From: Myxococcales bacterium
Lineage (GTDB): Bacteria > Myxococcota_A > UBA9042 > JABWCM01 > BTVJ01
NCBI GenBank assembly: GCA_045863395.1
Contig: BTVJ01000041.1
Location: 1 to 64,000 of the forward strand
DNA length: 64,000 nt
Direction: 5' to 3'
In this document: positions 3,962 to 40,308 of the stretch, piece after piece
How the letters are laid out: each line of letters begins with the position of its first letter
Numbering within the stretch: position 1 is the first letter of the stretch
Position numbers and translations under genes: made by a program
The notes under the pieces: model-generated
The model's database searches: none
The model's input: the letters and a program-made list of their open reading frames with translations, nothing else
What the model was told of the DNA's origin: nothing

Positions 3962-4684
3962 ATGAGTCTGTCTTTGCCGCACGCTGGCTTTGCGAAGCAC
4001 TGGCGGCTAGCGTTTTTGGGGAGTGCCCGCAGGCTGATGGCCTGGCGCCAACTCTGGGCGATCACCCCCCCCGAGCGCCTCCGCCTCCGCGCGATCCTCG
4101 ACGCGGTCGTCGCGAAGCTCTACGGCCTCTCCGCCGACGACCTCGGGTGGATCCTCCGCGACTGCGACCACCCGGTCGACAGAGTCTGCGACAAGCCGTT
4201 CTCGCGCACCCTCGACCCCAAGGGCTTCTGGCGGGTGGACAAGGACAAGCCGCCGGAGCTGCGGCACACCGTCCTGTCTCTCGTGGCCTTCCACGAGCTG
4301 GAGCGGGTGGGCCTCGACGCCTTCCTCGCCCAGAACGACGGCGACGGGTGGGCGCTGCCCGAGACGCTGCGGCTCGCCGACTACGGCCTCGGGCACGACT
4401 CCCGCGCCACGTCACACCAGCCGGTCGCCGCCGCCCTGGGTGAGCGCTTCCTGCCGTGGCAGCTCGCGCAGTCTCCCGAGGAGTCCTGGGAGGAGTGCCG
4501 GCGCCACGCCGAGCTCATCGACCGCATCCTCGGCGTGCCTCGCGCGGAGCCGGCGCCGGAGCCTGGCGCCACGGAGAGGCCCCCGAGCGGAGGCGCGCCG
4601 CCCCCGACCGACCTCTTGGGCGACCCGATCCAGACCGACCTCTTCGGCAACCCGGTCTACACGCAGCCCAAGCGGCGGAGGTGA
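3962..4684 (+). pseudogene. C-terminal fragment of an Eco57I/PglX/DrmMI-like type IIG N6-adenine methyltransferase
   Basis: LWAITPPERLRLRAILDAVVAKLYGLSADDLGWIL...LDPKGFWRVDK resembles the C-terminus of large type IIG MTases (R..LDA.VA.LYGL motif). No catalytic NPPY/W region is present upstream. It abuts the helicase gene. Confidence 0.7.
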
Positions 4685-4688
4685 GCCC

Positions 4689-7600: not shown

Positions 7601-10091
7601 GTGCGTGGCCTGGCGCTGCCGCGGGACGGTGGAGCCGGTCGAGGAGCTGGCCGACGACTACGACCTGAGCATGCTGGACCAGCCCTTCGCCATGCTCCGG
7701 CCCCGCGAGCACTCGGCGCAGGTCCCGCGGGAGAGCCGCGAGCGGGTCGAGCGGCTCTTCAAGGGCCCCTCCGAGGCGGTGAACACGCTGGTCTGCACCC
7801 CGACGCTGGAGCTGGGCGTGGACATCGGGGAGCTCGACGCGGTGCTCATGCGCAACGTCCCGCCGCTCCCCGCCAACTACTGGCAGCGCGCCGGCCGCGC
7901 AGGACGCCGCAACCGCATGTCGGTGAACCTCACCTACGCGCGGCAGGCGAGCCACGACCGTGCCTTCTTCGCCGACCCCATGAAGATGCTCGCCGGGCCC
8001 ATCGACCCGCCGAGCTTCAACCTCCGCAACGAGGAGATGGTGCGAAAGCACGTCCACGCGGCGGTCCTGACGGAGCTCCAGCAGGTCGCGCGGCGGCGGG
8101 GCCCGCTCCACCCGGGACGCGACGAGGTCGCGCACGCCTTGAGCACGTGCTTCCCCACGCGCATCAGCGCCTGGCTCTTCGACTCGGCGGGCAACGTGCG
8201 CACAGGCCACTACGACGTGACCTCCCTCGGCGCCGTGATCGCGCGGCACCGGGCGCGCCTGCTCCAGACCGTCGAGCGGGTCTTTGCGCAGAGCTGGCCA
8301 GCCGAGGCCGCGCAGGTGGTGACGCCTGCTCGCCTCGGCGCGGCGGTGGACGCCATGCCCGGGAGGCTCGACGAGATCGTGCGGCGTGTCGAGCGGCGGC
8401 TGGCGTGGGCCATGCGAGAGCAGGACCGCCTCGACGCGCTGCGCCGGACCAGGGGCAGCCTGGAGCCTGACGAGGAGGCGACGTGGGCCCGGTGCTCGAA
8501 GCTCATCAAGCGGCTCAAGGGGGTCGCGAAGGCAAAGGGGGCCGACGCGTCGGGCCAGGACGACACCTACACCTACGCGGTCCTGGCGGCCGAGGGCTTC
8601 CTGCCCGGGTACGGGCTCGAGACGGGCACCGTTGTCGTCACCTACGTGACGCCGCGAGGGTCGAGCGAGCTGCGCGAGTGGGAGCTGCGCCGCGGGACCT
8701 CGCTCGCGTTGCGGGAGAGCTCCCCCGGCAACCTGCTCTACGCCAACGGCCACCGGTTCGTGCCGCGGCAGTTCCACCTGGACCCGGACCCTCCCTTGGC
8801 GCTCCGGGTGGATCCGAGCCGTGAGGTGGTCGTGGAGGCGACCGGCGATGCGCTCTCCGGCCTGGGGGACGCGCTGCTGCCGGCCGTGCGGGTGAGCGAC
8901 GTGGACCTCGCCCACTTCTCCCAGATCTCCGACGAAGAGGAGGTGCGGTTCCAGGTGAGCGTCGCGACCTGGGGCTACGAGCAGGACCGGCACGAGGGCG
9001 GCGCGGCGTGGCTCTGGGGGACGATGGCCGTGCAGCACCGGCGCAGCGTGCACCTGCGCCTGGTCAACGTCGGCGTGTCCTCGCTCGTCCAGGGCACAGC
9101 GCTCGGGTATCCGGTGTGCGAGACCTGCGGGCAGAGCCGGTCGGCGCTGTCGAGCGCCAAAGAGATCGAGCACTTCAGCAAGGTCCATGAGGACCGGTGC
9201 GGTGTGCGCCCGCGGCGCGTCGGCTTCTACGCGGACGTCGTCGCGGACGCGCTCTCCCTGCTCGACCTCCCGGACCGCGGCGTCGCCTGCAGCGTGGTCG
9301 AGGCGCTGCGTCACGGGGCGGCCGACGTCCTGGAGATGGAGCTCGACGACCTGCAGATCCTGGCCCTGGCGCACGCGGGCGACGACCGCGTCGACATGGC
9401 GCTCTACGACCCGATGCCAGGCGGCTCGGGGCTGCTCGACCAGATGGTCGAGCGCTGGCCCGACGTGGTCGAGGCGGCGCTGCGGGTGGTCCGCGACTGC
9501 CCCTCCCGGTGTGACACCTCGTGCCCTGACTGCCTCCGCGAGTTCCGCAACGCGTGGGTCCACCGCCACCTCGACCGGCGCCGCGCCGAGGAGCGGCTTG
9601 CCGCGCTGGGAGACGCCCTGCGGCCGACCCACCCCATCCCGCCGCGGCTGCCGGCTCGGGCCGCGGCAGGCGCGCCGGACACCCCCGGGGAGGCGACGCT
9701 GCACGCGATGCTGGAGCGCGCCGGCCTCGGGGGCTTCAGCATCCACGAGCGCGTCGACCTGGGCCGCCCGGTGGGAGCGACGATCCCCGACGTGTACTAC
9801 GCCGACCCGACCGGGCGCTCGGACGGCCTGTGCGTCTACCTGGACGGCATGAGCCGGGCGCTCCACGGAGACCCGGAGCGGGGGCGCCTCGACGCGCAGA
9901 TCCGAGCCGCCCTGGAGGGCCGGGGCTACGAGGTCCGCGCCATCGCCCAGTCGGACCTCACGGACCGGCAGGCGATGGCGACCCACTTCTACTGGATCGC
10001 GCGAAGGCTGCTACCAGACCGCCAGTCCGCCGACCGCCTCCGCGACGAGCCGACGTGGTTCGAGTCACAGGTCCCGCCGTCCGGGTCCTGA
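4689..10091 (+). CDS. Large SF2 DEAD/DEAH-box helicase (YprA/DruE-like) with Zn-binding CxxC motifs, DUF1998 and a C-terminal Vsr/DUF559-like nuclease domain (1800 aa)
   Basis: STGTGSGKT, VYPMNALAEDQ, DEAH, ATSAT, LLVFTDNRQDA, HSAQ, TPTLELGVDIG, QRAGRAGRR; DUF1998-like YDPMPGGSG...C..C..SCPDCL; tail PDVYY...VYLDG...HG...D..IR..LEGRGYEV. GTG start after GGAGGTG. Confidence 0.92.
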   Translation: MLNPITYTERVVEDFLRYQLTTYPFTDERLARQMRELLSLARSRETPLLRGPYVSLSRPFEEGPTVASLVAEGLFHPHMVNLIPHPTLYGHQGAAVRHIIAERRPTIVSTGTGSGKTECFLYPIISRCLALRDEPDGIVAVVVYPMNALAEDQLGRLRALLCGTGVTFGMYVGGTPERDAEVAGVVLRQGASKADYERALEEQAAEQSGRAVHPPEERASREAMRSRPPRILLTNVKQLEYLLTRQKDVELFDGARLELLVFDEAHTFSGAAGAESACLVRRLREFCGRSAEQTVCVATSATIADPHGAADAPRHFASRFFGVAPDSVAVVTERYARAPWPDERVVPPALAGAANIHLDNVLSALRSVEDQPAVPGSMELLRRTFESMTGTTLDRHRWRESLYERLAGNEVVYQVAAALERPRPLAELVEALAARVGRPVPEEEVLLWLALGAAARDDGRPLLRPVVHAFVRGVGGAVVTFADGADDPVLWLSAEDAGGAGSGQRARLPVLSCTTCGQHYFEHHLEDFGLTDRAPSGGRTDGHRRHWRPLDAAQEDSRRVVLLDRSIGDEGEDGDAPKDAVALALCRRCGTASLDTEPCSQCGSGAPVPLLVVRQKHDRPGKLTRCVSCGTSGRVVMGRYREPARPVRALAVADVHVLAQSLIQHAERRRLLVFTDNRQDAAFQAGWMQDRARRYRLRALMAERLRRGPVGVSDLAGWLDALMDQDDDLSRVLVPEVWRKVPKSKVGVEHQHERRYFLTIQVLREITTSPRQRIGLEPWGRLRVEHEGLDATLPFFLQWAPVLGCSAAELRDGVATLLDGFRRRLLLHHPSGLYSRFWRDGAPEVVAGYLPLLEGVPKGLKLRRDRDDDERRIDQLIPSRNQTVTTQAALRWGVPEGDVVGFVEALWRLLTELGLLVPVTLRGVSPRLTPLPRCAGAHQIDADRLLLTASSKVWRCRVCRRTQARRTPGAACVAWRCRGTVEPVEELADDYDLSMLDQPFAMLRPREHSAQVPRESRERVERLFKGPSEAVNTLVCTPTLELGVDIGELDAVLMRNVPPLPANYWQRAGRAGRRNRMSVNLTYARQASHDRAFFADPMKMLAGPIDPPSFNLRNEEMVRKHVHAAVLTELQQVARRRGPLHPGRDEVAHALSTCFPTRISAWLFDSAGNVRTGHYDVTSLGAVIARHRARLLQTVERVFAQSWPAEAAQVVTPARLGAAVDAMPGRLDEIVRRVERRLAWAMREQDRLDALRRTRGSLEPDEEATWARCSKLIKRLKGVAKAKGADASGQDDTYTYAVLAAEGFLPGYGLETGTVVVTYVTPRGSSELREWELRRGTSLALRESSPGNLLYANGHRFVPRQFHLDPDPPLALRVDPSREVVVEATGDALSGLGDALLPAVRVSDVDLAHFSQISDEEEVRFQVSVATWGYEQDRHEGGAAWLWGTMAVQHRRSVHLRLVNVGVSSLVQGTALGYPVCETCGQSRSALSSAKEIEHFSKVHEDRCGVRPRRVGFYADVVADALSLLDLPDRGVACSVVEALRHGAADVLEMELDDLQILALAHAGDDRVDMALYDPMPGGSGLLDQMVERWPDVVEAALRVVRDCPSRCDTSCPDCLREFRNAWVHRHLDRRRAEERLAALGDALRPTHPIPPRLPARAAAGAPDTPGEATLHAMLERAGLGGFSIHERVDLGRPVGATIPDVYYADPTGRSDGLCVYLDGMSRALHGDPERGRLDAQIRAALEGRGYEVRAIAQSDLTDRQAMATHFYWIARRLLPDRQSADRLRDEPTWFESQVPPSGS

Positions 10092-28007: not shown

Positions 28008-28345
28008 GCTTCCTCCATCCGAGAGCAGAACGAACGTACCACGGGCGGCCACCACCCTCCAGCGGCGCAGTGCCATCCGAGGTCCCACGGCCAGAGGCGC
28101 CCGCACGCCCTCGCTGTAACCGCCACGCTCCATTCCAAAGGTGCTCCATGAAAGATCTTTCCTCCTGCGGGGGGCCACAGACCCGACCCCGCGTCGAGTC
28201 CATGCCCACGATGCAGCGGGCAGGCCGCCCCCAGAATGTTGACGCCCACGGCCAAGGCACTGTAACTTGGCCCCGACAACGACGTGAGCCAGTGCAACCG
28301 TTCGTGGGCGGCCGAGCCAACGGGGCCGCCCAAGGTGGCCTCTGT

Positions 28346-29584
28346 ATGGACCGGGTGCTGCGCGATTCCCTGGACGAGCTTCGCATCGCCCTGCCACCCC
28401 CGGCGCGAATCCTGCTGGTAGACGACGAGGTCGAGAACCTGGCGGTCCTGGAGACCCTCCTCGAGGACGACTGGGACGTGCAGACCGCCGGGGGGGGGGC
28501 TGAGGCGCTCGCGCTCCTCGAGGGGGGCGACGTCGACCTGGTCATCAGCGACCAGCGCATGCCCGAGATGACGGGCGTCGAGCTGCTGGCGCGCATCGCG
28601 GTCCGCTCTCCCGACACCATCCGCATCGTCCTGACGGGCTACACCGACGCCGAGCCCATGGTGCGGGCCATCAACGAGGGGGCGATCCACCGGTTCCTTC
28701 TCAAGCCGTGGGACCGCGACGAGATGCTCGCCGCGGTGCGGGAGTCCTTGGAGGTGCGCGCGACCCAGCTCGCCCTCCAGGCGGTGATCCGAGAGCGGAC
28801 GCGGCGAAACGACGCTCTGCGAGAGACGCTGGACCAGCTCCGCCACACCGAGGACCAGATCGTCGCCGCTGAGCGCTTGAGCACGCTGGGCCGCCTGACC
28901 GCAGGCATCGCCCACGACATCCGCAACCAGGCCCACGTCATGCTGCTCCTGGTCGACACCGTGAAGATGGAGTCGGCGGATCCCGCGGTCCACGCGGCAG
29001 CGGAGCTCGCGAGGACCTCGCTGAAAGCGCTCGTGGACCTCGTGCAGGACGTCAACAGCTTCGCGGGCGCGCACGCGCGCACCCTGCACCGCGTCCCGGT
29101 CCCCACCCGGGACCTCCTGACGGACGCCGCGTCGCTGTTCGCCCTGGAGCCCGGAGGCAAGGGGCGTGCGATCAGCGTGGACGTCGAGCTCGGCGCCGAC
29201 TCCATGGACGTCTCGGTCCAGTCCATGCGCCAGGCCCTCGTGTCCCTCATGCGCAACGGCGCCGCGGCCAGCGCTGATGGCGCGCCGCTGCTGCTCAGGG
29301 CACGTACGGTGGGTGACGACCGGCTGTCCCTCGAGGTGGTCGACCAGGGCTGCGGCATGACGCCCCACGAGCTGAAGCGAGCCGTGGAGCCGTTCTTCAG
29401 CGGCTTCGACCCCCCGGGGCTCGGCCTGGGCCTGGAGATCGTCCGGCTCGTCGCCGAGGCCCACGACGGCCACCTGGTGCTCGAGAGCACGCCAGGTCAG
29501 GGGACCATGGCGAGCATGGTGATGGGGCGCCGCGCGCCCATCATCGCGGTCCACACCGAGGAGGTGCCCCTTGGAGGTCGTTGA
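28346..29584 (+). CDS. Hybrid response regulator-histidine kinase (REC-HisKA-HATPase), PhcR/PhcQ-like architecture
   Basis: ILLVDDE, ISDQRMPEMTG, LTGYTD, KPW; AGIAHDIRN H-box; DQGCGM, PFFS, GLGLGL. Confidence 0.92.
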   Translation: MDRVLRDSLDELRIALPPPARILLVDDEVENLAVLETLLEDDWDVQTAGGGAEALALLEGGDVDLVISDQRMPEMTGVELLARIAVRSPDTIRIVLTGYTDAEPMVRAINEGAIHRFLLKPWDRDEMLAAVRESLEVRATQLALQAVIRERTRRNDALRETLDQLRHTEDQIVAAERLSTLGRLTAGIAHDIRNQAHVMLLLVDTVKMESADPAVHAAAELARTSLKALVDLVQDVNSFAGAHARTLHRVPVPTRDLLTDAASLFALEPGGKGRAISVDVELGADSMDVSVQSMRQALVSLMRNGAAASADGAPLLLRARTVGDDRLSLEVVDQGCGMTPHELKRAVEPFFSGFDPPGLGLGLEIVRLVAEAHDGHLVLESTPGQGTMASMVMGRRAPIIAVHTEEVPLGGR

Positions 29585-30713
29585 GACGATGCACGGGGCC
29601 CCTGCGTTGGCGGTGTGGGTCACATCCCACGCCACATCGGCTCTGCTCACCCCCCTCCGACAGGTGCTGGGGAGGGACACCGCTCTGGGCCCGCCCTGGC
29701 CGGAGGTGGGCCCGGCGATCCCCATCCTGGTCCCATCGGACCTTGCCCCCGGCGCGCGGGAGGCCACCCTCTCCCTCTGCGCGCGGGCGACCCCGGGCCG
29801 CGGCGTGCTGGTGGGGGGGACCCGCAACAAGGACGTCCTCCTCGACGCCATCAACCAAGCGCACGTGTTCCGGGCGCTCCCCGACGGGACGGCCCCCGAG
29901 ATTGTCGCCGAGGCGGCGCGCCAGGCCCACGGCCACATGAGCGCGGTGATGGCCCTGGCGCGCGAGTCCGTGTCGTTGCGCCGCGAGACCCAGGAGCTCG
30001 ACGACGCCCTGGCGGACCTCCGCCGCGCCCGCGCGCGGTTGCTCCACACGGAGCGCCTCTCCACCCTCGGGCGCATCACGGGCGGCCTGATCGAGAGCGC
30101 CCGCCAGCACCAGCAGGCGCTCGACGACTTCCGCTCGGTGGTGGAGCAGCGCACCAACGACCCGGAGCTGATGCAGCTCCTCACCTTCGCCACCGAGGGC
30201 ACGCGCAGCATCGCAACGCTCCTCGACGAGATCCAGGCCTACGCCCAGGAGCGCGCCCTCACCTACACCATGCAGGACGAGAGCCTCGACGACCTGGTCC
30301 GCCACGCGGCGGCCTTCGTGCGCTTCGACACCCTGGCGAAGCAGCGGATCCTGAGCGTCGAGGCCAACTCGGGCACCACCGTCAGGGCCAACCGCTACCG
30401 CATCTACCAGGTGCTCCTGAACCTCCTCCGCAACGCCCTCCAGGCCACCGACCAGAACGACACGGTGTCGGTCAAGACGTGGCGAGAGGGTGACAAGGCA
30501 TGGATCGAGGTGGCGGACACGGGCTGCGGCATGCCCCCCGAGGTCAAGGAGCGGATCTTCGACCCCTTCTTCACCACCAAGTTCGACAAGGGCCTGGGCC
30601 TCGGACTCCGGATCACGTTGTCGACGGTCCAGCACCACGGCGGCACCATCGACTGCCGCAGCCAGGTCGGCGAGGGGACGGCTTTTCGGATTGGGTTGCC
30701 GTGTGTGGGCTGA
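29571..30713 (+). CDS. Degenerate REC plus histidine-kinase-like protein lacking the H-box His (start TTG 29571 or ATG 29589)
   Basis: ERLSTLGRITGGLIES replaces AGIAH; intact QVLLNLLRNA, DTGCGM, FDPFFTTK, GLGLGL. Confidence 0.85.
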   Translation: MEVVETMHGAPALAVWVTSHATSALLTPLRQVLGRDTALGPPWPEVGPAIPILVPSDLAPGAREATLSLCARATPGRGVLVGGTRNKDVLLDAINQAHVFRALPDGTAPEIVAEAARQAHGHMSAVMALARESVSLRRETQELDDALADLRRARARLLHTERLSTLGRITGGLIESARQHQQALDDFRSVVEQRTNDPELMQLLTFATEGTRSIATLLDEIQAYAQERALTYTMQDESLDDLVRHAAAFVRFDTLAKQRILSVEANSGTTVRANRYRIYQVLLNLLRNALQATDQNDTVSVKTWREGDKAWIEVADTGCGMPPEVKERIFDPFFTTKFDKGLGLGLRITLSTVQHHGGTIDCRSQVGEGTAFRIGLPCVG

Positions 30714-30911
30714 CGCAACTGGGCGGGCTTGGATCGAGAGCCCCGCTCACTGCGCGTAACCGTTCTGGGCCAATTGAGCCAGTTTGCAGGTTACGAGCCG
30801 GAGTATAGTTGCTAGATCTGGTAACCGGCGGGCAGCGCCCGTGAACTTCGTCAACCAAGCGCGCGCGGGCCGTTAGGGGCTTGCCGGCACCAGGCTAAGG
30901 AGGATGTGGCC

Positions 30912-32501
30912 ATGGCAGATGACACCGAGGACGGACTCGGAACTTCGGTGGACACCGACAGGCCAAGCCCAGACCACCACCTTCTCCAGAACGAACCCAA
31001 GGACCCTGGGCAGGGGCGCTCGTATGAGGACCTGAGCGGTGGTCTTGGGCACGACATCTTCTTCCGCCCACCGCGCTACACCTCAATGGACCTGACAGGC
31101 GGCGCCCACAACGTCTTGCTTGGCTCGGAGCCACACCACGAAATTTGTGAACTCCACGACGTCTCACAGAACGGAGTCGCGTGGTACTGGCCTCACCATG
31201 ATCCGCCACAGCAAGGCGAGGTCCTGCAACGACTGCGCGTGATTCTGGACAGGCACGACGCCTATGACGGCCAGGCCCGCATCGTCTCGGTGCGTCAAGA
31301 GGAGTCGAGACTTCTGGTGGGCGCGATGTTCCTCGACTCGTTGATGGACATCGGGGATGTTCTGCAAGCCCGACAGCTCAGGACCAGGACCACTGTCAGC
31401 GACCACCCGCTCTGGCCGCTGACCCGACGCGTCTCGACCACCGGAAATCCCCAGTTCAAGGCTCTGGTGTCCGAGCTGCGACTGTTCTTCGAGGAGGCGT
31501 CAAATGACCTGGCGCGGTTGGAGTCGACCGTGCCATGGTCAGCGCTCCATGGTGAGACCCTGTCGGCCACCCGCGCTGCACTCATTGAGCTGATGCAACG
31601 CGAGTTCGTTCCCGGATTCGTGCGCTACTCGGAGGAGATTGACCGGGCCATTCGCCGCTCCGATTCAGCAGAGAACCTTGTCTTGAAGGACTACTCGCTG
31701 AGGATGCTCCAGGACTTCATGATGAGAGCTCCATTCCTTCACCGCACGCGCTGGAAGCCCCTCGGCTACCCTGGTGACTATGTGGTGATGCGATACATCT
31801 ACGAGAACAGCTTCGAGGGCCAGACGCTCTTCGGAAAGTCACTCCACCTGGCAGTGTGCGAGACGCGGGGCGCCAGGGCTGTCTGGGAGCGGAAGGAGCT
31901 CGTCAAGCGACGCATGCGGGACTTGCTCAAGGCCTACCCCTGCGCTGGGCGCCCTCTCCGCGTCGCCTCCATTGCTGCCGGACCGGCCCAGGAGATCTTC
32001 GAACTGCTCAGAGACACGGCGCCCGAGGGGCAGCACATGGAGATCGTGCTCTTCGACCAGGACGTCCAGGCACTGTCCTTCGCCCAGAGCCGCGTCCAAC
32101 CACAAGTCGAGGCCCGATGGAAGCCATGGTGCAAGGTGACCTACCTGCATGACTCCATCAAGCGCTTGCTACACGACCCAACACTGTTCAACGGCTTCGG
32201 CCCCTTCGATCTGATCTTTTGCACCGGGCTGTTCGACTATCTGAAGGTTCCAACAGCCGCACGCCTGACACAGACCTTCTGGACCAATCTTGCAGAGGGC
32301 GGCAGCGCCTACATCGGCAATATGCACCCATCCAATCCGTGCCGCTGGTTCCTTGAGCACCACCTGGAGTGGGTTCTCACCTACCGAACCCACGACGAGA
32401 TGCTGGAGTTCGGTCACCTGGGCGCACCTCAGGCCCAGCTCTCAATCGTCGAGGAGCCCACGGGCGTCAATCCCTTCCTCCTGGTGCAGAAGGTCCACTG
32501 A
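30912..32501 (+). CDS. phcB: PhcB-like class I SAM-dependent methyltransferase (fatty-acid methyl ester signal synthase family) with an N-terminal PilZ-like domain
   Basis: APFLHRT.WKPLGYPGDY..M..IY....EG.TLFGK, VASIAAGPAQE, LFDQD..AL, FDLIFCTGLFDYL, L..GG...IGN, LEW.L.YR recall the PhcB family; translationally coupled to a PhcS-like sensor. Confidence 0.72.
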   Translation: MADDTEDGLGTSVDTDRPSPDHHLLQNEPKDPGQGRSYEDLSGGLGHDIFFRPPRYTSMDLTGGAHNVLLGSEPHHEICELHDVSQNGVAWYWPHHDPPQQGEVLQRLRVILDRHDAYDGQARIVSVRQEESRLLVGAMFLDSLMDIGDVLQARQLRTRTTVSDHPLWPLTRRVSTTGNPQFKALVSELRLFFEEASNDLARLESTVPWSALHGETLSATRAALIELMQREFVPGFVRYSEEIDRAIRRSDSAENLVLKDYSLRMLQDFMMRAPFLHRTRWKPLGYPGDYVVMRYIYENSFEGQTLFGKSLHLAVCETRGARAVWERKELVKRRMRDLLKAYPCAGRPLRVASIAAGPAQEIFELLRDTAPEGQHMEIVLFDQDVQALSFAQSRVQPQVEARWKPWCKVTYLHDSIKRLLHDPTLFNGFGPFDLIFCTGLFDYLKVPTAARLTQTFWTNLAEGGSAYIGNMHPSNPCRWFLEHHLEWVLTYRTHDEMLEFGHLGAPQAQLSIVEEPTGVNPFLLVQKVH

Positions 32502-35131
32502 TGACTGTGGTCGAGCGGGAGATCGAGGCCCGGTGGGCTGACTGGCTAGTCTCCCGCAACCGCCGTGGGGCGCGAATCGTCCTGTGGCTCGTGGCAATCT
32601 TCTACCCGTTCTTTGGCGTGCTGGACTGGTTGGTGGCGCCACCCGACATGCTGCCACTGCTCTACTCCTCACGGGCGGCCGTCACGGCAATCACCATTGC
32701 CATGTTCTGGGTTGTGCGCTCTGACCTCTTCGAGCGTCGATCAGACATGGTCACAGCGTTTTATGCGCTGGTGCTCGCCGCGGGTATCGCGGTCATGGTC
32801 TTTGCCCTTGGAGGGTATCAGTCCCCATACTACGCGGGGCTCAGCCTCGTGATCGTAACGACGGGCCTGCTCTTCCTCTGGCCAGCTCGCGTCGCTGCCG
32901 TCACCCACGCTACCGTGGTCCTGTGCTACCTCGTCCCCAACGCCTTCACCGCCACGACCGACCAGCTCCTCTCCGCCGTTACGAGCTTCTTCTTCCTCGC
33001 GACAACCGCGGTGATCGTTGTCGCCGCCCAGATCCTGATGTACCGAAGTCAGCACGAGCAGGTCACGGGGAAGCTCATGCTGGAGAGGATCACGGCCGAG
33101 CGCGAGGAGGCTCTCGCGCGGCTCCAGGAGCTGGACCGAGCGAAGAGCATGTTCTTCAGCAACATCACGCACGAGTTGCGGACTCCGCTGACCATGATCC
33201 TGTCGCCACTGGAGAGCATGCTCTCTGGCGACCTGGGGAGTTTCCGGAGCGAGCAGAAGCTCTACCTGCGGAACGTGTGGCGCAACGCCCTGAAGCTGTT
33301 GAAGCTCATCAACGACCTTCTGGACATGGCCAAGATCGAGGAGCGATTCCTGAAGCTCAGCGTGGCGCGCGGCTCCCTGGTCCCCTTGCTGGAGGAGATC
33401 GTCGAGCACGCGCAGCCACTCGCCGCGCGCAAGGACATCGCGCTCATCCTCGAGGTGCGTCACGACAGCCAGGACCTGTGGACCGACCTGGAGCGCATGG
33501 AGCGAGTGTTCATCAATCTGCTCTCGAACGCGCTGAAGTTCACCGAGGCCAACGGCCGTGTGTCCATCGTGTTGGATCGAGGCGAGGGGGGGGAGGTCAC
33601 GGTCGCGTTCAGCGACTCGGGAATCGGAATCGCACCCGACAAGCTCGGCAAGGTGTTCGAGCGGTTCAGCCAGGCGGACGAGTCGACGACCCGGCGCTTC
33701 GGGGGGACGGGAATCGGCCTCGCGCTCGTGAAGGAGCTCGTCGAGCTGCACGGCGGCACCATCGACGTCGAGAGCGCGGTTGGTCGAGGATCTACCTTCA
33801 CCGTGCGCCTCCGCGAAGGGCGCGAGCATCTGGGAGACGCGGTCACGGAAGCGACCCTCTCCGGCGACGCCCGGGACTTCGGCGCCCAGATTCGGGAGGG
33901 CCGCCAGTACCGATTCCAAGACATCGAGGAGGCCACGGAGCGCCGCATCGCAGAGCGCGGCGACGACTCGACCAAGTCGACCAAGGTCCTGGTGGTCGAG
34001 GATACCGTGGAGCTGCTGCGCTTCATCCACATTCAGCTTCAGGAGGAGCACGCCGTCTACCTGGCGCTCAACGGGAAGCTGGGGCTGGAGCTGGCTAAAC
34101 GAGAGATGCCGGATCTGATCGTGACGGACTACATGATGCCGGAGATGGACGGGGTCGCAATGATCACGGCCCTACGGCAGGACCCGAAGACTGCGGAGAT
34201 CCCCATCGTGATGCTGACGGCGAAGAACGCCGTGGAGGACCGGCTCGCTGCGCACGGGGCCGGGGCGGACGTGTATCTGAACAAGCCGTTCAGCCCGCGG
34301 GAGCTGCGGGCCGTGATCGCGCAGCTCCTGGGGAAGCGGGGGCGACAGGCGACCACGGTCATGAAGGCGCAGGCGCGGAGCCTGGAGATCATCAGCGCCG
34401 GGCTCGCCCACGAGCTGCACAACCCGCTGTCCTACCTGAAGAACGCGGTGCTCACGACGGCGGAGAGCGCCGGACGGCTGCTCGGGATCATGCGGGACGA
34501 GACGCTGAGCCCGGCGGAGCGAGACAAGGCGCTGCAGAAGGCCAACCAGAAGATCGAGCGCATGTTGCCCGTGGCCGAGAAGGGGATTCAGCGCATCGAG
34601 TCCGTGGTGGCTCTCGTGCGGCGCTATGCCCGCGAGGGGTATCCAGAGGAGCCCACCGAGACTCCGCTGGATCGCGCGGTCTCCGACGTGGTGGAGCTGA
34701 TCGCCCCGAAGAGCGACAAGTCGGTTTCGCTGACGACGAACCTCGGGTGCGGCGACGCCGCCGTGCTGGTCATCCCGGAGGAGCTGCACCAGACGATCCG
34801 CAACCTGGTCCAGAACGCCATCGACGCCGTCGGGGACGGCGGCTCAGTGCGCCTGAGCACCCGCACGGCGGATGGCGGGAAGGTCGCGGTGATTGAGGTG
34901 GCCGACGACGGGCCGGGCATCCCGAAGGACGTCATGCCGCGCATCTTCACGCCCTTCTTCAGCACCAAGGGGCCGGGCAAGGGCATGGGCGTCGGTCTCT
35001 CCATCGCGCTCCAGGTCGTCGAGCAGGCGGGCGGCACCATAGACGTGCGAAACGCCGCGGAGGGGGGGGCGGTGTTCACGGTGCGGATTCCTACCATCCA
35101 GGTGGCGGCGCAGGTCGCGCTGGCGGGGTGA
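32501..35131 (+). CDS. Membrane hybrid sensor kinase (about 6 TM-HisKA-HATPase-REC-HisKA-HATPase), resembling a PhcS+PhcR fusion
   Basis: TM region with FGVLDW and SPYYAGLSLV; NITHELRTPL, NLLSNALKFT, GGTGIGL; VLVVED...TDYMMPEMDG...KPF; second AGLAHELHNPL...PFFSTK..GKGMGVGL. TGATG overlap. Confidence 0.92.
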   Translation: MTVVEREIEARWADWLVSRNRRGARIVLWLVAIFYPFFGVLDWLVAPPDMLPLLYSSRAAVTAITIAMFWVVRSDLFERRSDMVTAFYALVLAAGIAVMVFALGGYQSPYYAGLSLVIVTTGLLFLWPARVAAVTHATVVLCYLVPNAFTATTDQLLSAVTSFFFLATTAVIVVAAQILMYRSQHEQVTGKLMLERITAEREEALARLQELDRAKSMFFSNITHELRTPLTMILSPLESMLSGDLGSFRSEQKLYLRNVWRNALKLLKLINDLLDMAKIEERFLKLSVARGSLVPLLEEIVEHAQPLAARKDIALILEVRHDSQDLWTDLERMERVFINLLSNALKFTEANGRVSIVLDRGEGGEVTVAFSDSGIGIAPDKLGKVFERFSQADESTTRRFGGTGIGLALVKELVELHGGTIDVESAVGRGSTFTVRLREGREHLGDAVTEATLSGDARDFGAQIREGRQYRFQDIEEATERRIAERGDDSTKSTKVLVVEDTVELLRFIHIQLQEEHAVYLALNGKLGLELAKREMPDLIVTDYMMPEMDGVAMITALRQDPKTAEIPIVMLTAKNAVEDRLAAHGAGADVYLNKPFSPRELRAVIAQLLGKRGRQATTVMKAQARSLEIISAGLAHELHNPLSYLKNAVLTTAESAGRLLGIMRDETLSPAERDKALQKANQKIERMLPVAEKGIQRIESVVALVRRYAREGYPEEPTETPLDRAVSDVVELIAPKSDKSVSLTTNLGCGDAAVLVIPEELHQTIRNLVQNAIDAVGDGGSVRLSTRTADGGKVAVIEVADDGPGIPKDVMPRIFTPFFSTKGPGKGMGVGLSIALQVVEQAGGTIDVRNAAEGGAVFTVRIPTIQVAAQVALAG

Positions 35132-35226: not shown

Positions 35227-36204
35227 TCAGCGGGAAGCGCAGCAGCGGTAGGGGAATTCCGTGGTCTTGGTGCCGGGAGCCATCTGTGACGCGCTGGCGG
35301 CGTAGGAATAGTCGCAGGATCCTCCTCCCCCGATAGCGCCCAATGCTCCTTGGTAGATCTCCTCAGGCTCGCTGAAGAGTACCCTCGCGACGATGTCAGC
35401 ACTCCACTCGGGTGTGAAGCCCACGGTATCCTGAATTTCGTCGACCCAGCCCCGGCCGCACACCTCCATCACCTCGTCGCCACGGCAGAGGCGCAAGCCT
35501 GCCTTGCGGCACGCGCTCAGTGCCTTGTGGCTGTAGTCCGCCGGGCGTAGCGTGGACTCCATGCAGGTCTCCGGGGACACGGCGACCAGGCCCTCGGGGC
35601 ATGGTCGCGGAGCCTTCCATTTCGCATCGAGCTCCCCCTCCAGAGCAATCAGTGTGGCACCTCGAGCGGCGGCATCGCTCTCCAGGGCTTCGACGCGCGC
35701 CTCCAGTGCGTCGATTCGCCCCTGTGCCGCTGCGAGTTCCACAGCCGCGGCTGCCTCTGCGGCCGCCAGCGCCCCCTCCAGGGCCGTCATCCGTGCGTCA
35801 AGGCTCTGGGTCGCGGAGTCAAGGGAGGTCAGCGCACCCTGAACCGTCGCGCCTGGGCCGCTTGCGGCGATCACTTCGGCCCCGGGCGGAGGGGCCTGCT
35901 CCAGCGCCATCACCCGCTCAGGGAGACCGGCCAGCGCCTCCCCGTGGGAGTCCACCTTCTGTGTCAGGCCCACCACCGAGCCCTCCAGCGCGTCCGTCCG
36001 GCCGGCGAGGTCCCCGTTCGCCGCCTGCTGCGCAGCCAGCTCATCCAGCGCACCCTGGACCGTTGCCGACTTCACGCCGGCGGGAGCCACATAGGACACC
36101 TCCGACGCTCGGGTCGCTGTCTCCGGGTCGGAGCACCCGGGCGACACGACGATCACGGCCACCCACGTCGCACGGGTCATCACTCGTCGCATCCTCGCCT
36201 CCAT
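35227..36204 (-). CDS. Lipoprotein with coiled-coil stalk and a C-terminal Cys-containing C-type-lectin/FGE-like domain
   Basis: SPGC lipobox; two ATVQGAL motifs; heptad region; CPEG...C...AC...GLRLC..DE...C...EW...YRCC. Confidence 0.72.
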   Translation of the reverse strand: MEARMRRVMTRATWVAVIVVSPGCSDPETATRASEVSYVAPAGVKSATVQGALDELAAQQAANGDLAGRTDALEGSVVGLTQKVDSHGEALAGLPERVMALEQAPPPGAEVIAASGPGATVQGALTSLDSATQSLDARMTALEGALAAAEAAAAVELAAAQGRIDALEARVEALESDAAARGATLIALEGELDAKWKAPRPCPEGLVAVSPETCMESTLRPADYSHKALSACRKAGLRLCRGDEVMEVCGRGWVDEIQDTVGFTPEWSADIVARVLFSEPEEIYQGALGAIGGGGSCDYSYAASASQMAPGTKTTEFPYRCCASR

Positions 36205-36214
36205 CGCAGCGGCG

Positions 36215-39200
36215 TCACCAGTGGGGAAATGGGACCGCCTCGCCTGGAGACGCGGTCACGGCCACGTCCACCACGAGCGGCACCTGGTTGGCAGTCCATG
36301 GGATCGGCGTGGCGCCATCTGCCTCCACGCTCACGGGCAGCTTGACCGTCTCGCCGGGCGGAGTCCAGATGCGGACCGACGAGGCAAGCGACAGCCACGG
36401 GCGCACGAAGACCTGCTTCGTACAGGTCGCGCAAGGGGGGGTGCCGGTGGCCGGGCAATCGAACCCGCACTTGTCCTGGTAGAAGCAGGTCGCCTTGTCG
36501 GTGAGCGGGTGCGGCGTCGCGCTTGCGCAGCCCTCGCCGTCCGGGCGCACGTAGACGTAGCCAGTCCCGTAAGTGCTCAGCGGCACCGGGTCGAGCAGCG
36601 CGCATGTGCCAGGCCAGGCCGCGAGGAGGTCCAGCCACACGCTGGACGAAGCCGGGATGCTCACTGCGCCGCTCGTTGGTGCTGGCTGCCCGTCGGGAGT
36701 CGTGCGGACCGCCATCGAGAAGGTGGGGCTCGTCAGGACTCTGCTCCAGACTGTCTCCGCGGCCGACAGATCCTGGCACGCGCCGCCTGCGGGAGTCTCG
36801 CCGGCATAGGTCGTCGCCTCGTAGATGCACGCGTCACCCCCACACAATGGGGCGGCGACCAGGGCGGTCTTGGCACCGTAGTGCCGCGCGCCGGAGGCGG
36901 TCGCGTGGAGCTTGCTCAGAGGCCACGAAGGATTCAGGAGCCCCACCTGCAGCGGCATCGGGTACGGGTTCCACAGGCGGAGCTGCCGGAAGCGCGCCGG
37001 GACCGGCGTCGCACGGAACGGCGCGTGGGCCGTGCCACCCGAGATGGAGAGCGCGGGGCCGTCCGCCAGCGTCAGGGGCGCTGACACCGGCTCCATCAGC
37101 AGCGGCGGGGTCACCAACTCCAGGGTGAAGGTCACCTCCAACGCCGCGCTCGCGTTCCCGGCGACGTCTACGGCGCGCACCTGGAGACCGGTGGGAAGCA
37201 ACGTCTTGGAGTCGGGGATCGCTTGGCTCTTCATGAAGAGAGGAGACGCGATGGGCAGAACGGCCCCTCCCATGGGCGCCCAGCCTGCGCCCGGATCCGG
37301 GAGGATCCCGGGCCACAGGAAGCGGTACTGGACGACGAGCGGCGGGGCTCCGGCAGGAGGACCCGCGTCCTGAGCCAGGACTCCCAGGTGCGGTACATTC
37401 TGCCCCTTGAGCGCAGCTCCCGTCCAAAGGTCAATCCCCTGACCCAACCGGTGTGGAAACTTCCGTAGCACGCCGCAGTGGGGCAGGCACAGGTCCTTGA
37501 GCTTGAGGTTGGCGTCCGGCGGGCACTGATAGGCCACGGTGTTCCCATTGGCGACAACATTGCACAGGGCGTCAGGGACGTAGCCCTCATCGCTCCCCCA
37601 CCCCACCACCGGCGGCAGAGTATCCACCATGAGCACCCGCTCGACGACCACGCTCGTGTTCCCCGCCACGTCCACGGCGTATACGGCCACCACGTGGGCT
37701 CCCTGCGCGGCTTGCCCGCCGCCGTCGAGCAGCGAGATCGGGGCCGTCCACGTCCACGCTCCCTTTGCCCCCGCTGCCACCACCTGCGCCGCTCCCACCT
37801 CGCCGTCCACCACCACCCACACCGACGCGACGCCCGAGATGCCGTCCGTAGCCACCCCACCGAGGGTCAGCGTCGCCGTGTTGAACCACACCTTGTCTGG
37901 AGCCGGCGTCGTGATGGAGACCACCGGCGGCTCCAGGTCGGCGGTCACCGTCACCTGCACCGGCTTCGACTCGTTGCCCGCCACGTCCTGGGCCACGACC
38001 TGCACCACCGTCGGCGCGCCGCCCGCCAGCAGCGGGACGACCGCGGACCACGAATCTCCCGTTGGCGTCGCCTCCACCGGGGCCGCGCCCGACGCCGTGA
38101 GCCGCACCAGCGCCACACCGCTGGTGGCGTCGCTCGCCGTGCCGCTCACGGTCACAGACGCCGACGCGAAGAACCCGCCGTCGAGACCGGGCGCCACCCC
38201 GATCTGGGGCGCCACCCGGTCCACGCCGAACGGGCGCTCCACCTCCGACGTGTTCCCGAGCGCATCGGTGCCTTCCACGACCAGCATCCGCACCCCGTCG
38301 GCCACGCCCGTCAGGCTCGCCGTCCACGCCTTGCCGTCGACCTTCGCCGCCACCTCGGCGCCACCCTTGACGCCTACCACCACCCCCGCCACACCGACCC
38401 CCGCGTCCGTGACCACCCCGGAGGCAGCCACCGCGTCCGTGGTCACCCACGCGCCGTAGCCCGGCTCGTCGATCGACACGCTCGGGCCGTTCGGGTCCCA
38501 CAAGACCACCCGCTGCGTTTCACCCACGTTCCCAGCCTCGTCCGTCGCCCGCACCGCCCACGTGTGCTCTCCGGCGTAGGCGTAGTCCGCCTTCGCGCTC
38601 CAGCTCGTGCCGCTCCAGCTCCCCGAGAGCAGCTTGCCGTTCAGCCGCACCTCCAGTGACTTGACCCCCGCCGCCAGGCCCTCGCGCGGCGTCGGATCCG
38701 CCACCGATCCGCTCGCCACGGCCGCGCTCTGCGCCGTCGCGCTCGCCGCTGGCTCGACGAAGGTCACCACGGGCGCCGTGCGGTCCACGTGCAGCACCCG
38801 CGTCAGCTCACCCACGTTCCCCGCCGCATCCACGGCCTCTACCCTCACCTTCACGAGACCGTCCGGCAGCGTGTCCAGGGGCACCAGCGCCGCCACCACC
38901 CGCTCGTCCGGCAGCACGGACAGCGCCACCAGCGAAAGTGGCACCACCTCGCCCTCTCCCGTCGCCGTACCCGTCACGCCAGAGACTCCGCCCACATCCC
39001 ACGCCCGCGCCTTCACGGTCGGCGAGCTCCCCACAATCGTCCCCTCCGCTGGCGTCGGCTCCTCCCACGCGAGCCCCGGGGCCAGCGGGTCGAAGGGGCG
39101 CGGCGCCACGGGCGGGTACAGCGGGCCGTCGTCCAGCGCCAGGTCCTCGTAGAGGCCGCCCGGCGCCAGCAGCGGCGCCTGGTCCAGCTCCGGCGTCAGA

Positions 39201-40192
39201 TCGAAGATGGCGCGCGCCAGCTCCCACCGCGTGGTGTCCACCGTGACCGGCTTGACGCCCTTCACGTTGACTCCCAGCACCGAGCCGTCCGCCGCCGGCG
39301 TCAGACCGTCGAGGACCCCGTCGCCCGCATCCCGCATCAGCGCCGTCACGACGTCGATCACCTTCACGGATGCCTCGGCCTCCACCGACCACCGCGCCGC
39401 GATGCCACGCAGACCGGCGTGTGTCAGCCCAAGCAGGGCCGAGCCCCCCGAGAAGCCCTCGTCCCCGGACATCCACACCTTGGTGTGGTTGAGCAGCCAC
39501 TTGTCTGGCCGCCACAGGTGCTCCTCGAGCCGGCTGCGCGCCATCTTCTCGGCGACCGCCGCGTCCTGGACCGCTCCGACGTACGCCCGCGCCAGACGCG
39601 TCGCCACCGTCGTCCAGGCGTGCAGGTTCAGGTTGTAGACGGGCTCCCCCGCCCGCAGATCAATCACCACGGTCAGGGCGTCGTCCACGTCGAAGGTCTC
39701 CGTCCCCTCCCCCGCCGGGTAGGTCGCCTTGGTCCCCCGCGCCCGCACCTCCACCCACCCACCGGAGGGCACCGCCAGCGCGAAGACTCCGTCAGCGTCC
39801 GTGGTGCCCTCCGCCACCGCCGAGATCGCCTCCAGCTCCTTCCCCAGCGCCCACGCCTCCACGATGGCCCCCACCACCGGTCCCGTCAGCGCAACCCGCC
39901 CGCTCACGGCCACGGCAGGACCCGGCACCCACGCGACGTCGTCAACGATGTCCTGGTGAGAAACCTGGGGGGCCCCATCGACACTCATTGCGTCCGCGTC
40001 ATCAACGACGTCCGCGAGGCCGGCGGCGCCGTCCCCGTCAGAGGTCCCTCCCGAGTCTTCAGCGCCCCGCATCGCGTCACTGGCGCAGGCCCCCACGACG
40101 GCCAGCACCAATACCCAGGTGCCCACACCGTACGCCCCAGGCCGCACGCGCGACTGCACCCGCACGCGGCCTGCCTCGCCTCGCACCGTCAT
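36215..40192 (-). CDS. Large surface lipoprotein with tandem bacterial Ig-like repeats
   Basis: VGAC lipobox; repeated V.A.D.AGN / D..AP.V / SGV..V motifs (5-6 copies); Cys-rich C-terminus; GGAGG RBS. Confidence 0.85.
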   Translation of the reverse strand: MTVRGEAGRVRVQSRVRPGAYGVGTWVLVLAVVGACASDAMRGAEDSGGTSDGDGAAGLADVVDDADAMSVDGAPQVSHQDIVDDVAWVPGPAVAVSGRVALTGPVVGAIVEAWALGKELEAISAVAEGTTDADGVFALAVPSGGWVEVRARGTKATYPAGEGTETFDVDDALTVVIDLRAGEPVYNLNLHAWTTVATRLARAYVGAVQDAAVAEKMARSRLEEHLWRPDKWLLNHTKVWMSGDEGFSGGSALLGLTHAGLRGIAARWSVEAEASVKVIDVVTALMRDAGDGVLDGLTPAADGSVLGVNVKGVKPVTVDTTRWELARAIFDLTPELDQAPLLAPGGLYEDLALDDGPLYPPVAPRPFDPLAPGLAWEEPTPAEGTIVGSSPTVKARAWDVGGVSGVTGTATGEGEVVPLSLVALSVLPDERVVAALVPLDTLPDGLVKVRVEAVDAAGNVGELTRVLHVDRTAPVVTFVEPAASATAQSAAVASGSVADPTPREGLAAGVKSLEVRLNGKLLSGSWSGTSWSAKADYAYAGEHTWAVRATDEAGNVGETQRVVLWDPNGPSVSIDEPGYGAWVTTDAVAASGVVTDAGVGVAGVVVGVKGGAEVAAKVDGKAWTASLTGVADGVRMLVVEGTDALGNTSEVERPFGVDRVAPQIGVAPGLDGGFFASASVTVSGTASDATSGVALVRLTASGAAPVEATPTGDSWSAVVPLLAGGAPTVVQVVAQDVAGNESKPVQVTVTADLEPPVVSITTPAPDKVWFNTATLTLGGVATDGISGVASVWVVVDGEVGAAQVVAAGAKGAWTWTAPISLLDGGGQAAQGAHVVAVYAVDVAGNTSVVVERVLMVDTLPPVVGWGSDEGYVPDALCNVVANGNTVAYQCPPDANLKLKDLCLPHCGVLRKFPHRLGQGIDLWTGAALKGQNVPHLGVLAQDAGPPAGAPPLVVQYRFLWPGILPDPGAGWAPMGGAVLPIASPLFMKSQAIPDSKTLLPTGLQVRAVDVAGNASAALEVTFTLELVTPPLLMEPVSAPLTLADGPALSISGGTAHAPFRATPVPARFRQLRLWNPYPMPLQVGLLNPSWPLSKLHATASGARHYGAKTALVAAPLCGGDACIYEATTYAGETPAGGACQDLSAAETVWSRVLTSPTFSMAVRTTPDGQPAPTSGAVSIPASSSVWLDLLAAWPGTCALLDPVPLSTYGTGYVYVRPDGEGCASATPHPLTDKATCFYQDKCGFDCPATGTPPCATCTKQVFVRPWLSLASSVRIWTPPGETVKLPVSVEADGATPIPWTANQVPLVVDVAVTASPGEAVPFPHW

Positions 40193-40308
40193 TGGACCCT
40201 CCTGCACACACAGGAGTGTCCCCCCAACCGTGCTCTTGCGTCAACCTTGCTGGTGAGTCCTGACCTTGATCGCTCCAACCCTCGCTCCGAGCATCGCGAC
40301 ACCGACCT

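Follow-up and report, generated by a model that had tools for sequence, protein, structure and literature searches.

A four-gene locus on the forward strand of a 64,000-nucleotide stretch from a Myxococcales bacterium (the window; contig BTVJ01000041.1 of assembly GCA_045863395.1, C41 in our numbering) joins a relative of PhcB, the Ralstonia signal synthase, to a membrane sensor that carries a PhcS-type input domain, or head. By analogy with the Phc system, we consider it probable that the methyltransferase (MT) makes a methylated lipid-like signal, that the sensor head binds this signal and that a multistep phosphorelay runs from there to an unlinked target. We favor this reading because all three input domains are homologous to PhcB and PhcS and because enzyme and sensor are linked and co-inherited; the presence of other synthase-like enzymes in the same slot, the predicted cyclase-anchor fold of the head and an RNA-library contig across the four genes point the same way. 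A 3-hydroxy fatty acid methyl ester as the specific product is a weaker proposition and may well be wrong. The locus is a variant of Phc rather than Phc itself, since the input side is alike but the sensor layout, PhcQ and PhcA fail to correspond.

The host genome (8.8 Mb, 71% GC, 97% complete) belongs to a myxobacterial-type lineage, as the original prediction, made from the DNA letters, had proposed: the named relatives of its ribosomal protein S3 were from Myxococcales (83%), Myxococcota (79%), Haliangiales (77%) and Deltaproteobacteria (75%), with one Pseudomonadota record (74%). Four open reading frames (ORFs) follow one another on the same strand. RK1 (28346..29584, 412 aa) is by Pfam a receiver-controlled histidine kinase of the order REC-HisKA-HATPase with acceptors Asp69 and His190, RK2 (29589..30713, 374 aa) is its paralogue, MT (30912..32501, 529 aa, alternative GTG start at 30906) is a class I S-adenosylmethionine methyltransferase with a PilZ-like N-terminal domain, and the membrane sensor (32501..35131, 876 aa) combines a six-helix head, kinase 1 (His224), a receiver (Asp543) and kinase 2 (His637). 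The features first noticed were all present, namely the KPLGYPGD, SIAAGPAQE and GLFDYL motifs of MT, the TGATG overlap of MT and sensor (32499-32503), the SPYYAGL motif, the six transmembrane helices and the HisKA-HATPase-REC-HisKA-HATPase order of the sensor. The prediction was to be given up if enzyme and sensor membrane domain showed no specific similarity to PhcB and PhcS; such similarity was found for both.

Reference phcBSRQ clusters were taken from Ralstonia- and Cupriavidus-genus genomes, in which the source names PhcS, PhcR and PhcQ were confirmed. The PhcB of L174, a Ralstonia-genus locus outside the plant-pathogenic complex, has 464 aa and Arg22, as described for PhcB; MT shares 27% identity with it along 435 aa (E 2e-36) and was its sole match in the whole genome. 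Profiles of the methyltransferase domain from the window clade and from betaproteobacteria matched at probability 100, and of 26 columns that are near-invariant (at least 93% of 155 methyltransferases) MT keeps all 26 and Ralstonia PhcB 25. The predicted structure and fold searches gave a class I methyltransferase fold, with a Bordetella protein of uncharacterised function and, for the most part, methyltransferases of small molecules as top matches. General databases said less: Pfam returned weak methyltransferase and PilZ matches only (CheR at E 1e-4, below the cut-off), a PDB sequence search with MT gave nothing at E 1, and NCBIfam had no model matching MT or the PhcB-like proteins tested. 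Many relatives of MT in JGI carry the automatic KEGG-style name 3-OH PAME (3-hydroxypalmitic acid methyl ester) biosynthesis protein, so the homology is already on record through automatic names, yet unstudied in the literature we found.

The N-terminal domain of MT (31044..31334), which the original prediction had not mentioned, is a PilZ-like beta-strand domain in the structure model (Pfam E 0.023, below the cut-off) and is homologous to the N-terminal domain of PhcB (profile-profile probability 94). Fold searches with whole MT, whose listings were filled by the methyltransferase domain, gave no match to it. PilZ domains that bind cyclic di-GMP are recognised by DxSxxG and RxxxR motifs. DxSxxG is present in MT, whereas RxxxR is not, the two invariant arginines being spaced RxxR. 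Among 117 close relatives R52, R55, S85 and G88 were kept in all and D83 in 115, and PhcB-type sequences carry NLQRKS in place of this motif. Judged from these residues, control of MT by cyclic di-GMP through the PilZ-like domain is possible. Two further PhcB-like enzymes (L045:7690-10416, L167:6383-8440) were seen with an extra N-terminal domain, either a second methyltransferase, as also in P0089, or a receiver.

The sensor head (32525..33070; domain limits taken from a joint profile) was likewise confirmed as a relative of PhcS. It aligned to the PhcS head at hhalign probability 98.5 over 174 nearly gap-free columns, and a profile of 25 window-clade heads, run against 44,555 genome ORFs and nine PhcS loci, recovered all nine PhcS (E 7e-14 to 2e-9). 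Besides these the profile returned no more than the sensor itself, a cyclase that shares the head and a weakly matching Ser/Thr kinase. Identity between the window and Ralstonia heads was 17-20%, with an invariant Arg shared. The AlphaFold2 model has six helices (mean predicted local distance difference test score 97.6), in agreement with six hydrophobic segments, and almost no outside loop. Its fold matches were the Pseudomonas aeruginosa protein ImcA (Z 16.7) and the adenylyl cyclase anchors of AC9 (16.3), AC5 (15.3) and Rv1625c (9.9); the top three superposed at a root-mean-square deviation of 2.5-2.7 over 175-180 residues with 9-13% identity, and a shared fold shows no shared ligand. The Atlas structure entry for the head named MASE8. 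Pfam gave no MASE8 (PF20968) match to the window head and MASE10 at E 0.005, with sub-cut-off MASE8 matches in 4 of 13 related sensors. A modulating effect of fatty acids on mammalian adenylyl cyclases has been reported, at a site that the text of PMC12414865 does not map. The modelled cyclase-anchor fold is thus a suggestive hint to a lipid ligand, and suggestive only.

Enzyme and head travel together well beyond this genome. The methyltransferase domain was matched in 73 of 301 same-phylum genomes, and at 59 same-phylum loci examined around such matches a head lay within 3.5 kb in 52 (two of the seven misses fell at contig ends), a full head-kinase-receiver-kinase sensor in 41 and a REC-kinase in 36. 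The same 3.5 kb held a head at 66 of 66 betaproteobacterial-type loci and at 26 of 26 loci from mostly Planctomycetes and Verrucomicrobia. Counted by hand, 68 of the 73 methyltransferase-positive genomes have a head, a figure favored by a head profile built from methyltransferase-adjacent heads. With kinase domains removed, enzyme and head identities remained correlated (partial r 0.57 for 55 loci, pairs not independent). The range of named loci is a floor, the contig scan having kept the best 80 of 598 matches; it extends to Planctomycetes, Verrucomicrobia, one Polyangiaceae genome and the plasmid of a cyanobacterium. The last, from Pseudanabaena (L003, NC_019690.1, 5956-8575), has a short PhcB-like methyltransferase facing a head-bearing kinase and receiver beside a Tn3 transposase. 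A conjugative Paraburkholderia graminis plasmid (L002, NZ_CP024936.1, 6497-10872) carries a phcB-phcS-like operon with a 134 aa receiver-only gene in the place of PhcR.

Within the locus, MT and the sensor head behave as one exchanged cassette (30880..33050, ends approximate) whose history, as read from the sequences, is apart from that of the rest of the operon; the case is made by conflict between the MT and head trees and the kinase trees and by strain differences concentrated outside MT and head. MT and head find their closest counterparts in L034-L036 (56-65% identity). For the receiver, the second kinase, RK1 and RK2 the closest locus is L075; between L075 and the window, identity is as low as 29% for MT and 25% for the head. 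Forcing each half onto the neighbours of the other was rejected by approximately unbiased (AU) tests (p-AU 5e-9, 0.003 and 2e-9), and sliding identity placed the switch of history near sensor residue 200-250. An RNA-library contig of a related strain showed 148 differences over 5836 bases, 7 of them in the 2171 bases of MT and head (0.3%) versus 141 in the other 3665 (3.8%; Fisher p 7e-21), a contrast to which mixed-strain assembly could contribute, run X1 showing a wider near-identical tract. GC content at third codon positions (GC3) was 0.775 in MT, 0.92-0.95 in RK1 and RK2 and 0.91 as a crude genome median.

The original prediction had read the sensor as PhcS and its relay PhcR fused, and the order of its domains does resemble PhcS followed by PhcR. 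Nor do the PhcR sequences object to such a fusion in the window lineage: placing the PhcR kinase with window-type second kinases was not rejected (p-AU 0.505), and although receivers split into an internal type and an RK1/PhcR/PhcQ type (Shimodaira-Hasegawa-like approximate likelihood ratio test, SH-aLRT, 100), the AU test of the alternative, with the PhcR receiver among internal receivers, was non-significant (p 0.21). It is PhcS that sits in the wrong place. PhcS aligned at 82 bits to the second kinase region versus 61 bits to sensor domain plus kinase 1. In unrooted quick trees of 220 and 81 kinase cores, the first kinases formed a clade of their own without PhcS (SH-aLRT 100), PhcS kinases nested among Planctomycete and Verrucomicrobial second kinases (SH-aLRT 98), among which short transmembrane kinase forms arise at three separate places, and forcing PhcS with the first kinases was rejected (p-AU 0.021). 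The fused layout is also not special to the window genome, being that of 41 of the 59 same-phylum loci, and most loci (36 of 59) have a PhcR-like gene of its own in addition to the long form. We therefore dropped the fusion, which now seems very improbable. The second kinase core (34388..35095) would be the sensor part that corresponds to the PhcS kinase, and the counterpart of PhcR would be the separate gene RK1 rather than a segment of the sensor. The simplest history suggested by the trees is that PhcS descends from a longer, two-kinase receptor; kinase 1 would have been lost together with its receiver on several occasions, one of which gave PhcS. Because the trees are unrooted, this direction is drawn from the nesting.

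Ralstonia PhcR found RK1 as its best match in the genome (23.5% over 404 aa, 76.6 bits), by a thin margin over the next (75.9 bits). The RK1 receiver groups with those of PhcR and PhcQ, and the kinase tree leaves strict RK1-PhcR orthology undecided. Two REC-kinases had been predicted upstream of MT, which held for RK1 and failed for RK2. Here Glu169 stands at the phospho-His position and the N-terminus is a degenerate receiver that has no acidic pocket and that hhalign matched, at probability 94, in its C-terminal 60 columns alone; Pfam detects just the ATPase domain, whose motifs are kept, and the protein groups with RK1-type kinases. Going by these substitutions, RK2 is classed as a pseudo-kinase. 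The same His-less gene occurs in L075 and L077, which with the window makes only three cases seen. In an alignment tally, the phospho-His column was also often without His in REC-kinase neighbours elsewhere (8 of 19 rows in the distant same-phylum group and 7 of 27 in the Planctomycete and Verrucomicrobial one; examples are L047, L048, L062, L076, L078 and other same-phylum loci), so that dead relay partners appear to recur.

Other enzymes appear to fill the synthase slot where PhcB is lacking. We picked by score 20 loci among head matches without a PhcB-type match alongside, 18 with kinases and two with GGDEF proteins, and none of the 20 held a PhcB-type methyltransferase. Upstream of the 18 sensor kinases lay a PilZ/hydrolase/methyltransferase gene in nine, a PilZ protein plus a separate methyltransferase in one (ten with a methyltransferase), a polyketide synthase in three, a PilZ protein alone in one and nothing identifiable in four; the ORF upstream of the L193 sensor looks like a shadow frame and was counted with these last. 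The nine (L194, L199, L202, L203, L205, L206, L208, L209, L210) encode proteins of 830-1300 aa in which a class I methyltransferase occurs together with PilZ domains (in most of them) and a middle domain weakly matching hydrolases or acyltransferases; they are placed before the same sensor and are candidates for a second type of synthase. In Pfam the middle domain gave Acyl_transf_2 over the cut-off in L210 and weak hydrolase matches in L203, L206 and L208; a PDB search with one such protein matched only the methyltransferase part, so that a thioesterase reading of the middle domain comes from Pfam. The polyketide-synthase-like genes of L197, L200 and L207 (acyltransferase, acyl carrier protein, ketoreductase and dehydratase domains; two with a thioesterase-like end) sit immediately before head-kinase-receiver genes. 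In L191 (7198-9681) and L192 (7266-9773) the sensor is preceded by related PilZ-containing proteins of 830 aa that carry a C-terminal domain as well, and in L192 a small separate methyltransferase lies between. Of the two GGDEF receptors, one follows a GDSL hydrolase and the other an AMP-binding enzyme.

In the mechanism that we propose, MT would methylate a fatty-acid-like molecule, and the product would be released and bound by the six-helix domain of the sensor. By analogy with Phc and with the Leptospira Lvr system, binding would change kinase 1 (His224), from which phosphate would pass to the internal receiver (Asp543) and switch kinase 2 (His637). Kinase 2 or kinase 1 would then phosphorylate RK1 (Asp69), which would autophosphorylate (His190) and hand the signal to a regulator probably encoded elsewhere, with RK2 perhaps tuning RK1 as a catalytically dead partner. 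The relay logic follows the precedent of LvrA and LvrB, in which, according to the main texts, LvrA phosphorylates its own receiver and a Rec-controlled kinase, which in turn phosphorylates an unlinked anti-sigma factor (PMC5863495, PMC13269768). Like the window locus, LvrA/LvrB(/LvrC) pairs a kinase-receiver-kinase hybrid with a Rec-controlled kinase, neither of them DNA-binding, and LvrA was the best NCBIfam match of the sensor (332 bits versus a cut-off of 1200). Unlike the window sensor with its membrane head, LvrA is described as cytosolic with a PAS sensor (PMC5863495, PMC13269768). We did not retain LvrAB as itself a phc-like system, given this architecture and main texts in which neither 'methyltransferase' nor 'quorum' occurs (PMC5863495, PMC13269768).

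Several observations weigh against a lipid signal exchanged between cells. MT is only 27% identical to PhcB, and the methyltransferase tree puts PhcB within Planctomycete and Verrucomicrobial enzymes and not as sister to the window clade, so the substrate of MT may differ. Of 228 genomes lacking a methyltransferase match, 65 (counted by hand) have a head, on cyclases, GGDEF proteins and Ser/Thr kinases. The slot tally of 18 loci has no random-neighbour baseline, and 4 of the 18 show no identifiable enzyme. No modulator is mapped to a cyclase anchor in the text of PMC12414865, and for ImcA, the best fold match, the described regulator is a partner protein and no lipid (PMC10904736). On the side of the exchange, the AU groups were named after the similarity tables had been viewed, the trees were quick ones without a mixture model, and the GC3 dip of MT is modest, placing it among the lowest 12% in a crude set of genes. 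Some DNA may have entered the RNA contigs, and run X1 covers the flanks too. No PhcQ orthologue was found in the genome, where PhcQ matches centre on the receiver and the C-terminal part alone had none at E 1e-3. The absence of a PhcA-like gene from the window, already reported in the original prediction, extends to the 97% complete genome: no PhcA orthologue was found there, the best matches being 30% identical, in a setting where unrelated LysR paralogues inside Ralstonia and Cupriavidus reach 24-32% versus 75% for the true orthologue. None was found at 1e-15 in three of three relatives either; the query was taken to be PhcA from its position, its length of 346 aa and its LysR domains, and not from a name in a database.

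Some of these points suit a circuit within the cell, in which MT methylates a membrane lipid or metabolite of its own cell and the sensor reads internal state, amounting to metabolic sensing rather than quorum sensing. A head with almost no outside loop, the many output types that use the head without a methyltransferase and the single-chain fusions of head, cyclase, cyclic nucleotide (cNMP)-binding and methyltransferase domains (L081, L085, L091 and C27) would all fit. PhcB and PhcS, built from the same domains, nevertheless make and sense a released signal by the account in PMC8578825 and PMC6989110, and joint exchange of enzyme and head, with a near-identical cassette in diverged strains, fits matching between cells; we regard metabolic sensing as unlikely. 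Of the fusions, the one at G000:C27:73142-76009 (L093:7143-10010) is a second head protein of the host genome itself and joins a PhcS-type head to a cyclase of the adenylate/guanylate type, a domain that binds cNMP and a PhcB-like methyltransferase domain in degenerate form; L081 and L085 resemble it, and L091 has a better-kept methyltransferase domain. A third, weaker head homologue of the host genome (G000:C15:96491-98749) is fused to an apparent Ser/Thr kinase, as are heads near a methyltransferase in L070 and L173.

Partners of the CheR or RpfF type act on their sensor by methylation or binding. If MT did the same, co-inheritance would reflect a protein interface, and the TGATG translational coupling, the fusions in other genomes, the weak CheR match (E 1e-4, below the cut-off) and an ImcA head that works through protein contact (PMC10904736) would be in keeping. 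The fold matches of MT are mostly small-molecule methyltransferases, however, unrelated enzymes including polyketide synthases occupy the same slot and PhcB makes a diffusible signal, which together leave this reading improbable. Less likely still is cross-talk with Ralstonia and Cupriavidus through a locus that makes or detects their own 3-OH MAME (3-hydroxymyristic acid methyl ester) or 3-OH PAME: catalytic-core residues and the invariant Arg of the head are shared with Ralstonia, but the heads are only 17-20% identical, the trees assign the window enzyme and head to another major clade than PhcB and PhcS, and the cassette is shared within the population of the organism itself. A lipid-like signal that the organism makes, releases and senses itself stays our preferred reading.

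The Phc systems of Ralstonia, Cupriavidus and Paraburkholderia resemble the locus in a PhcB-family methyltransferase that includes the N-terminal beta domain, in its position directly before a kinase with the same six-helix head, in a REC-kinase relay without a DNA-binding domain, of which RK1 stands as the PhcR-like member, and in enzyme and sensor that evolve together. PMC8578825 describes Ralstonia PhcB and PhcS as grouping by signal type, PhcR and PhcQ by phylotype. They differ in that PhcS is a head with a single kinase of ~445 aa, whereas the window sensor has 876 aa with two kinases and a receiver; in that the relay genes of the window lie upstream, with a dead REC-kinase paralogue where Ralstonia has PhcQ; in that no PhcA was found and enzyme (27%) and head (17-20%) belong to another clade; and in that the PilZ-like DxSxxG, intact in MT, is degenerate in PhcB. 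The cyclase anchors AC5, AC9 and Rv1625c, ImcA and Pfam MASE8 share the predicted head fold; at 9-13% identity, and with a protein regulator for ImcA, they differ otherwise. Vibrio Cqs and Legionella Lqs, compared by design and not by sequence, also couple a synthase to a kinase with six transmembrane helices, and a CqsS head is reported to drive Rv1625c in a chimera (PMC12414865), yet their synthase is a pyridoxal phosphate enzyme by the description in PMC10653808.

Published accounts give phc a narrower range than we observed. It is treated as Ralstonia-specific in PMC8578825 and as confined, within 6,937 Pseudomonadota genomes, to Betaproteobacteria in PMC10653808, with homologues in Cupriavidus and Paraburkholderia (PMC6989110); the text of PMC13320629 and PMC13220807 added nothing further on its range. 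No description of phc outside Betaproteobacteria was found in the literature covered, mostly open-access main texts without supplements. The enzyme-sensor pair occurs in a quarter of the sampled same-phylum genomes and in Planctomycetes and Verrucomicrobia. We tentatively propose, at somewhat less than even odds, that Phc is a reduced branch of a large lipid-signal family built on a receptor of cyclase-anchor fold, in which a synthase (PhcB-type methyltransferase, PilZ-hydrolase-methyltransferase or polyketide synthase) is exchanged jointly with its head, the output differs from system to system (kinase relay, cyclase, GGDEF or Ser/Thr kinase) and, in the window clade, the PilZ-like domain may bring second-messenger control, the window locus being a Myxococcota autoinducer system after recent cassette exchange. 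Were the chemistry true, a lipid-signal family would be widespread in bacteria of sludge, soil and sediment, including Myxococcota, for which, to our knowledge, few small-molecule autoinducers are known. For the question of which ligands cyclase membrane anchors take up, the fold match would also supply a bacterial model receptor whose lipid ligand class is known. Candidate synthase and receptor adjoin, which makes the proposal directly testable.

Over half of the sequence words of the four-gene stretch were present in RNA libraries from three studies; runs with small word shares (X9-X17) were set aside. One RNA-library contig spans all four genes at depth 31, with scattered, low-depth coverage of the flanks. 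Contigs from two studies start 50-60 bases before RK1, at 28288 and 28295, a weak hint of one transcript and of a possible 5' leader (28288..28345, forward strand); such starts prove neither, because contigs cannot show strand or start. A scan found no sigma-70-type promoter and one terminator-like match, inside the sensor gene and below chance level. A domain scan that took in 32 of the 122 window ORFs of at least 200 aa found no regulator among the flanking genes scanned, which encode a 5'-nucleotidase, an immunoglobulin (Ig)-like protein, peptidases and an acyl-CoA dehydrogenase. Directly downstream of the sensor, converging on it from the minus strand, is a coiled-coil protein with a Cys-rich tail (35227-36204), followed on the same strand by an Ig-like repeat protein of 1330 aa (36215-40207). 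Elsewhere in the window, 4440-10091 encodes a DEAD/DEAH helicase of 1883 aa with an MrfA Zn-binding domain.

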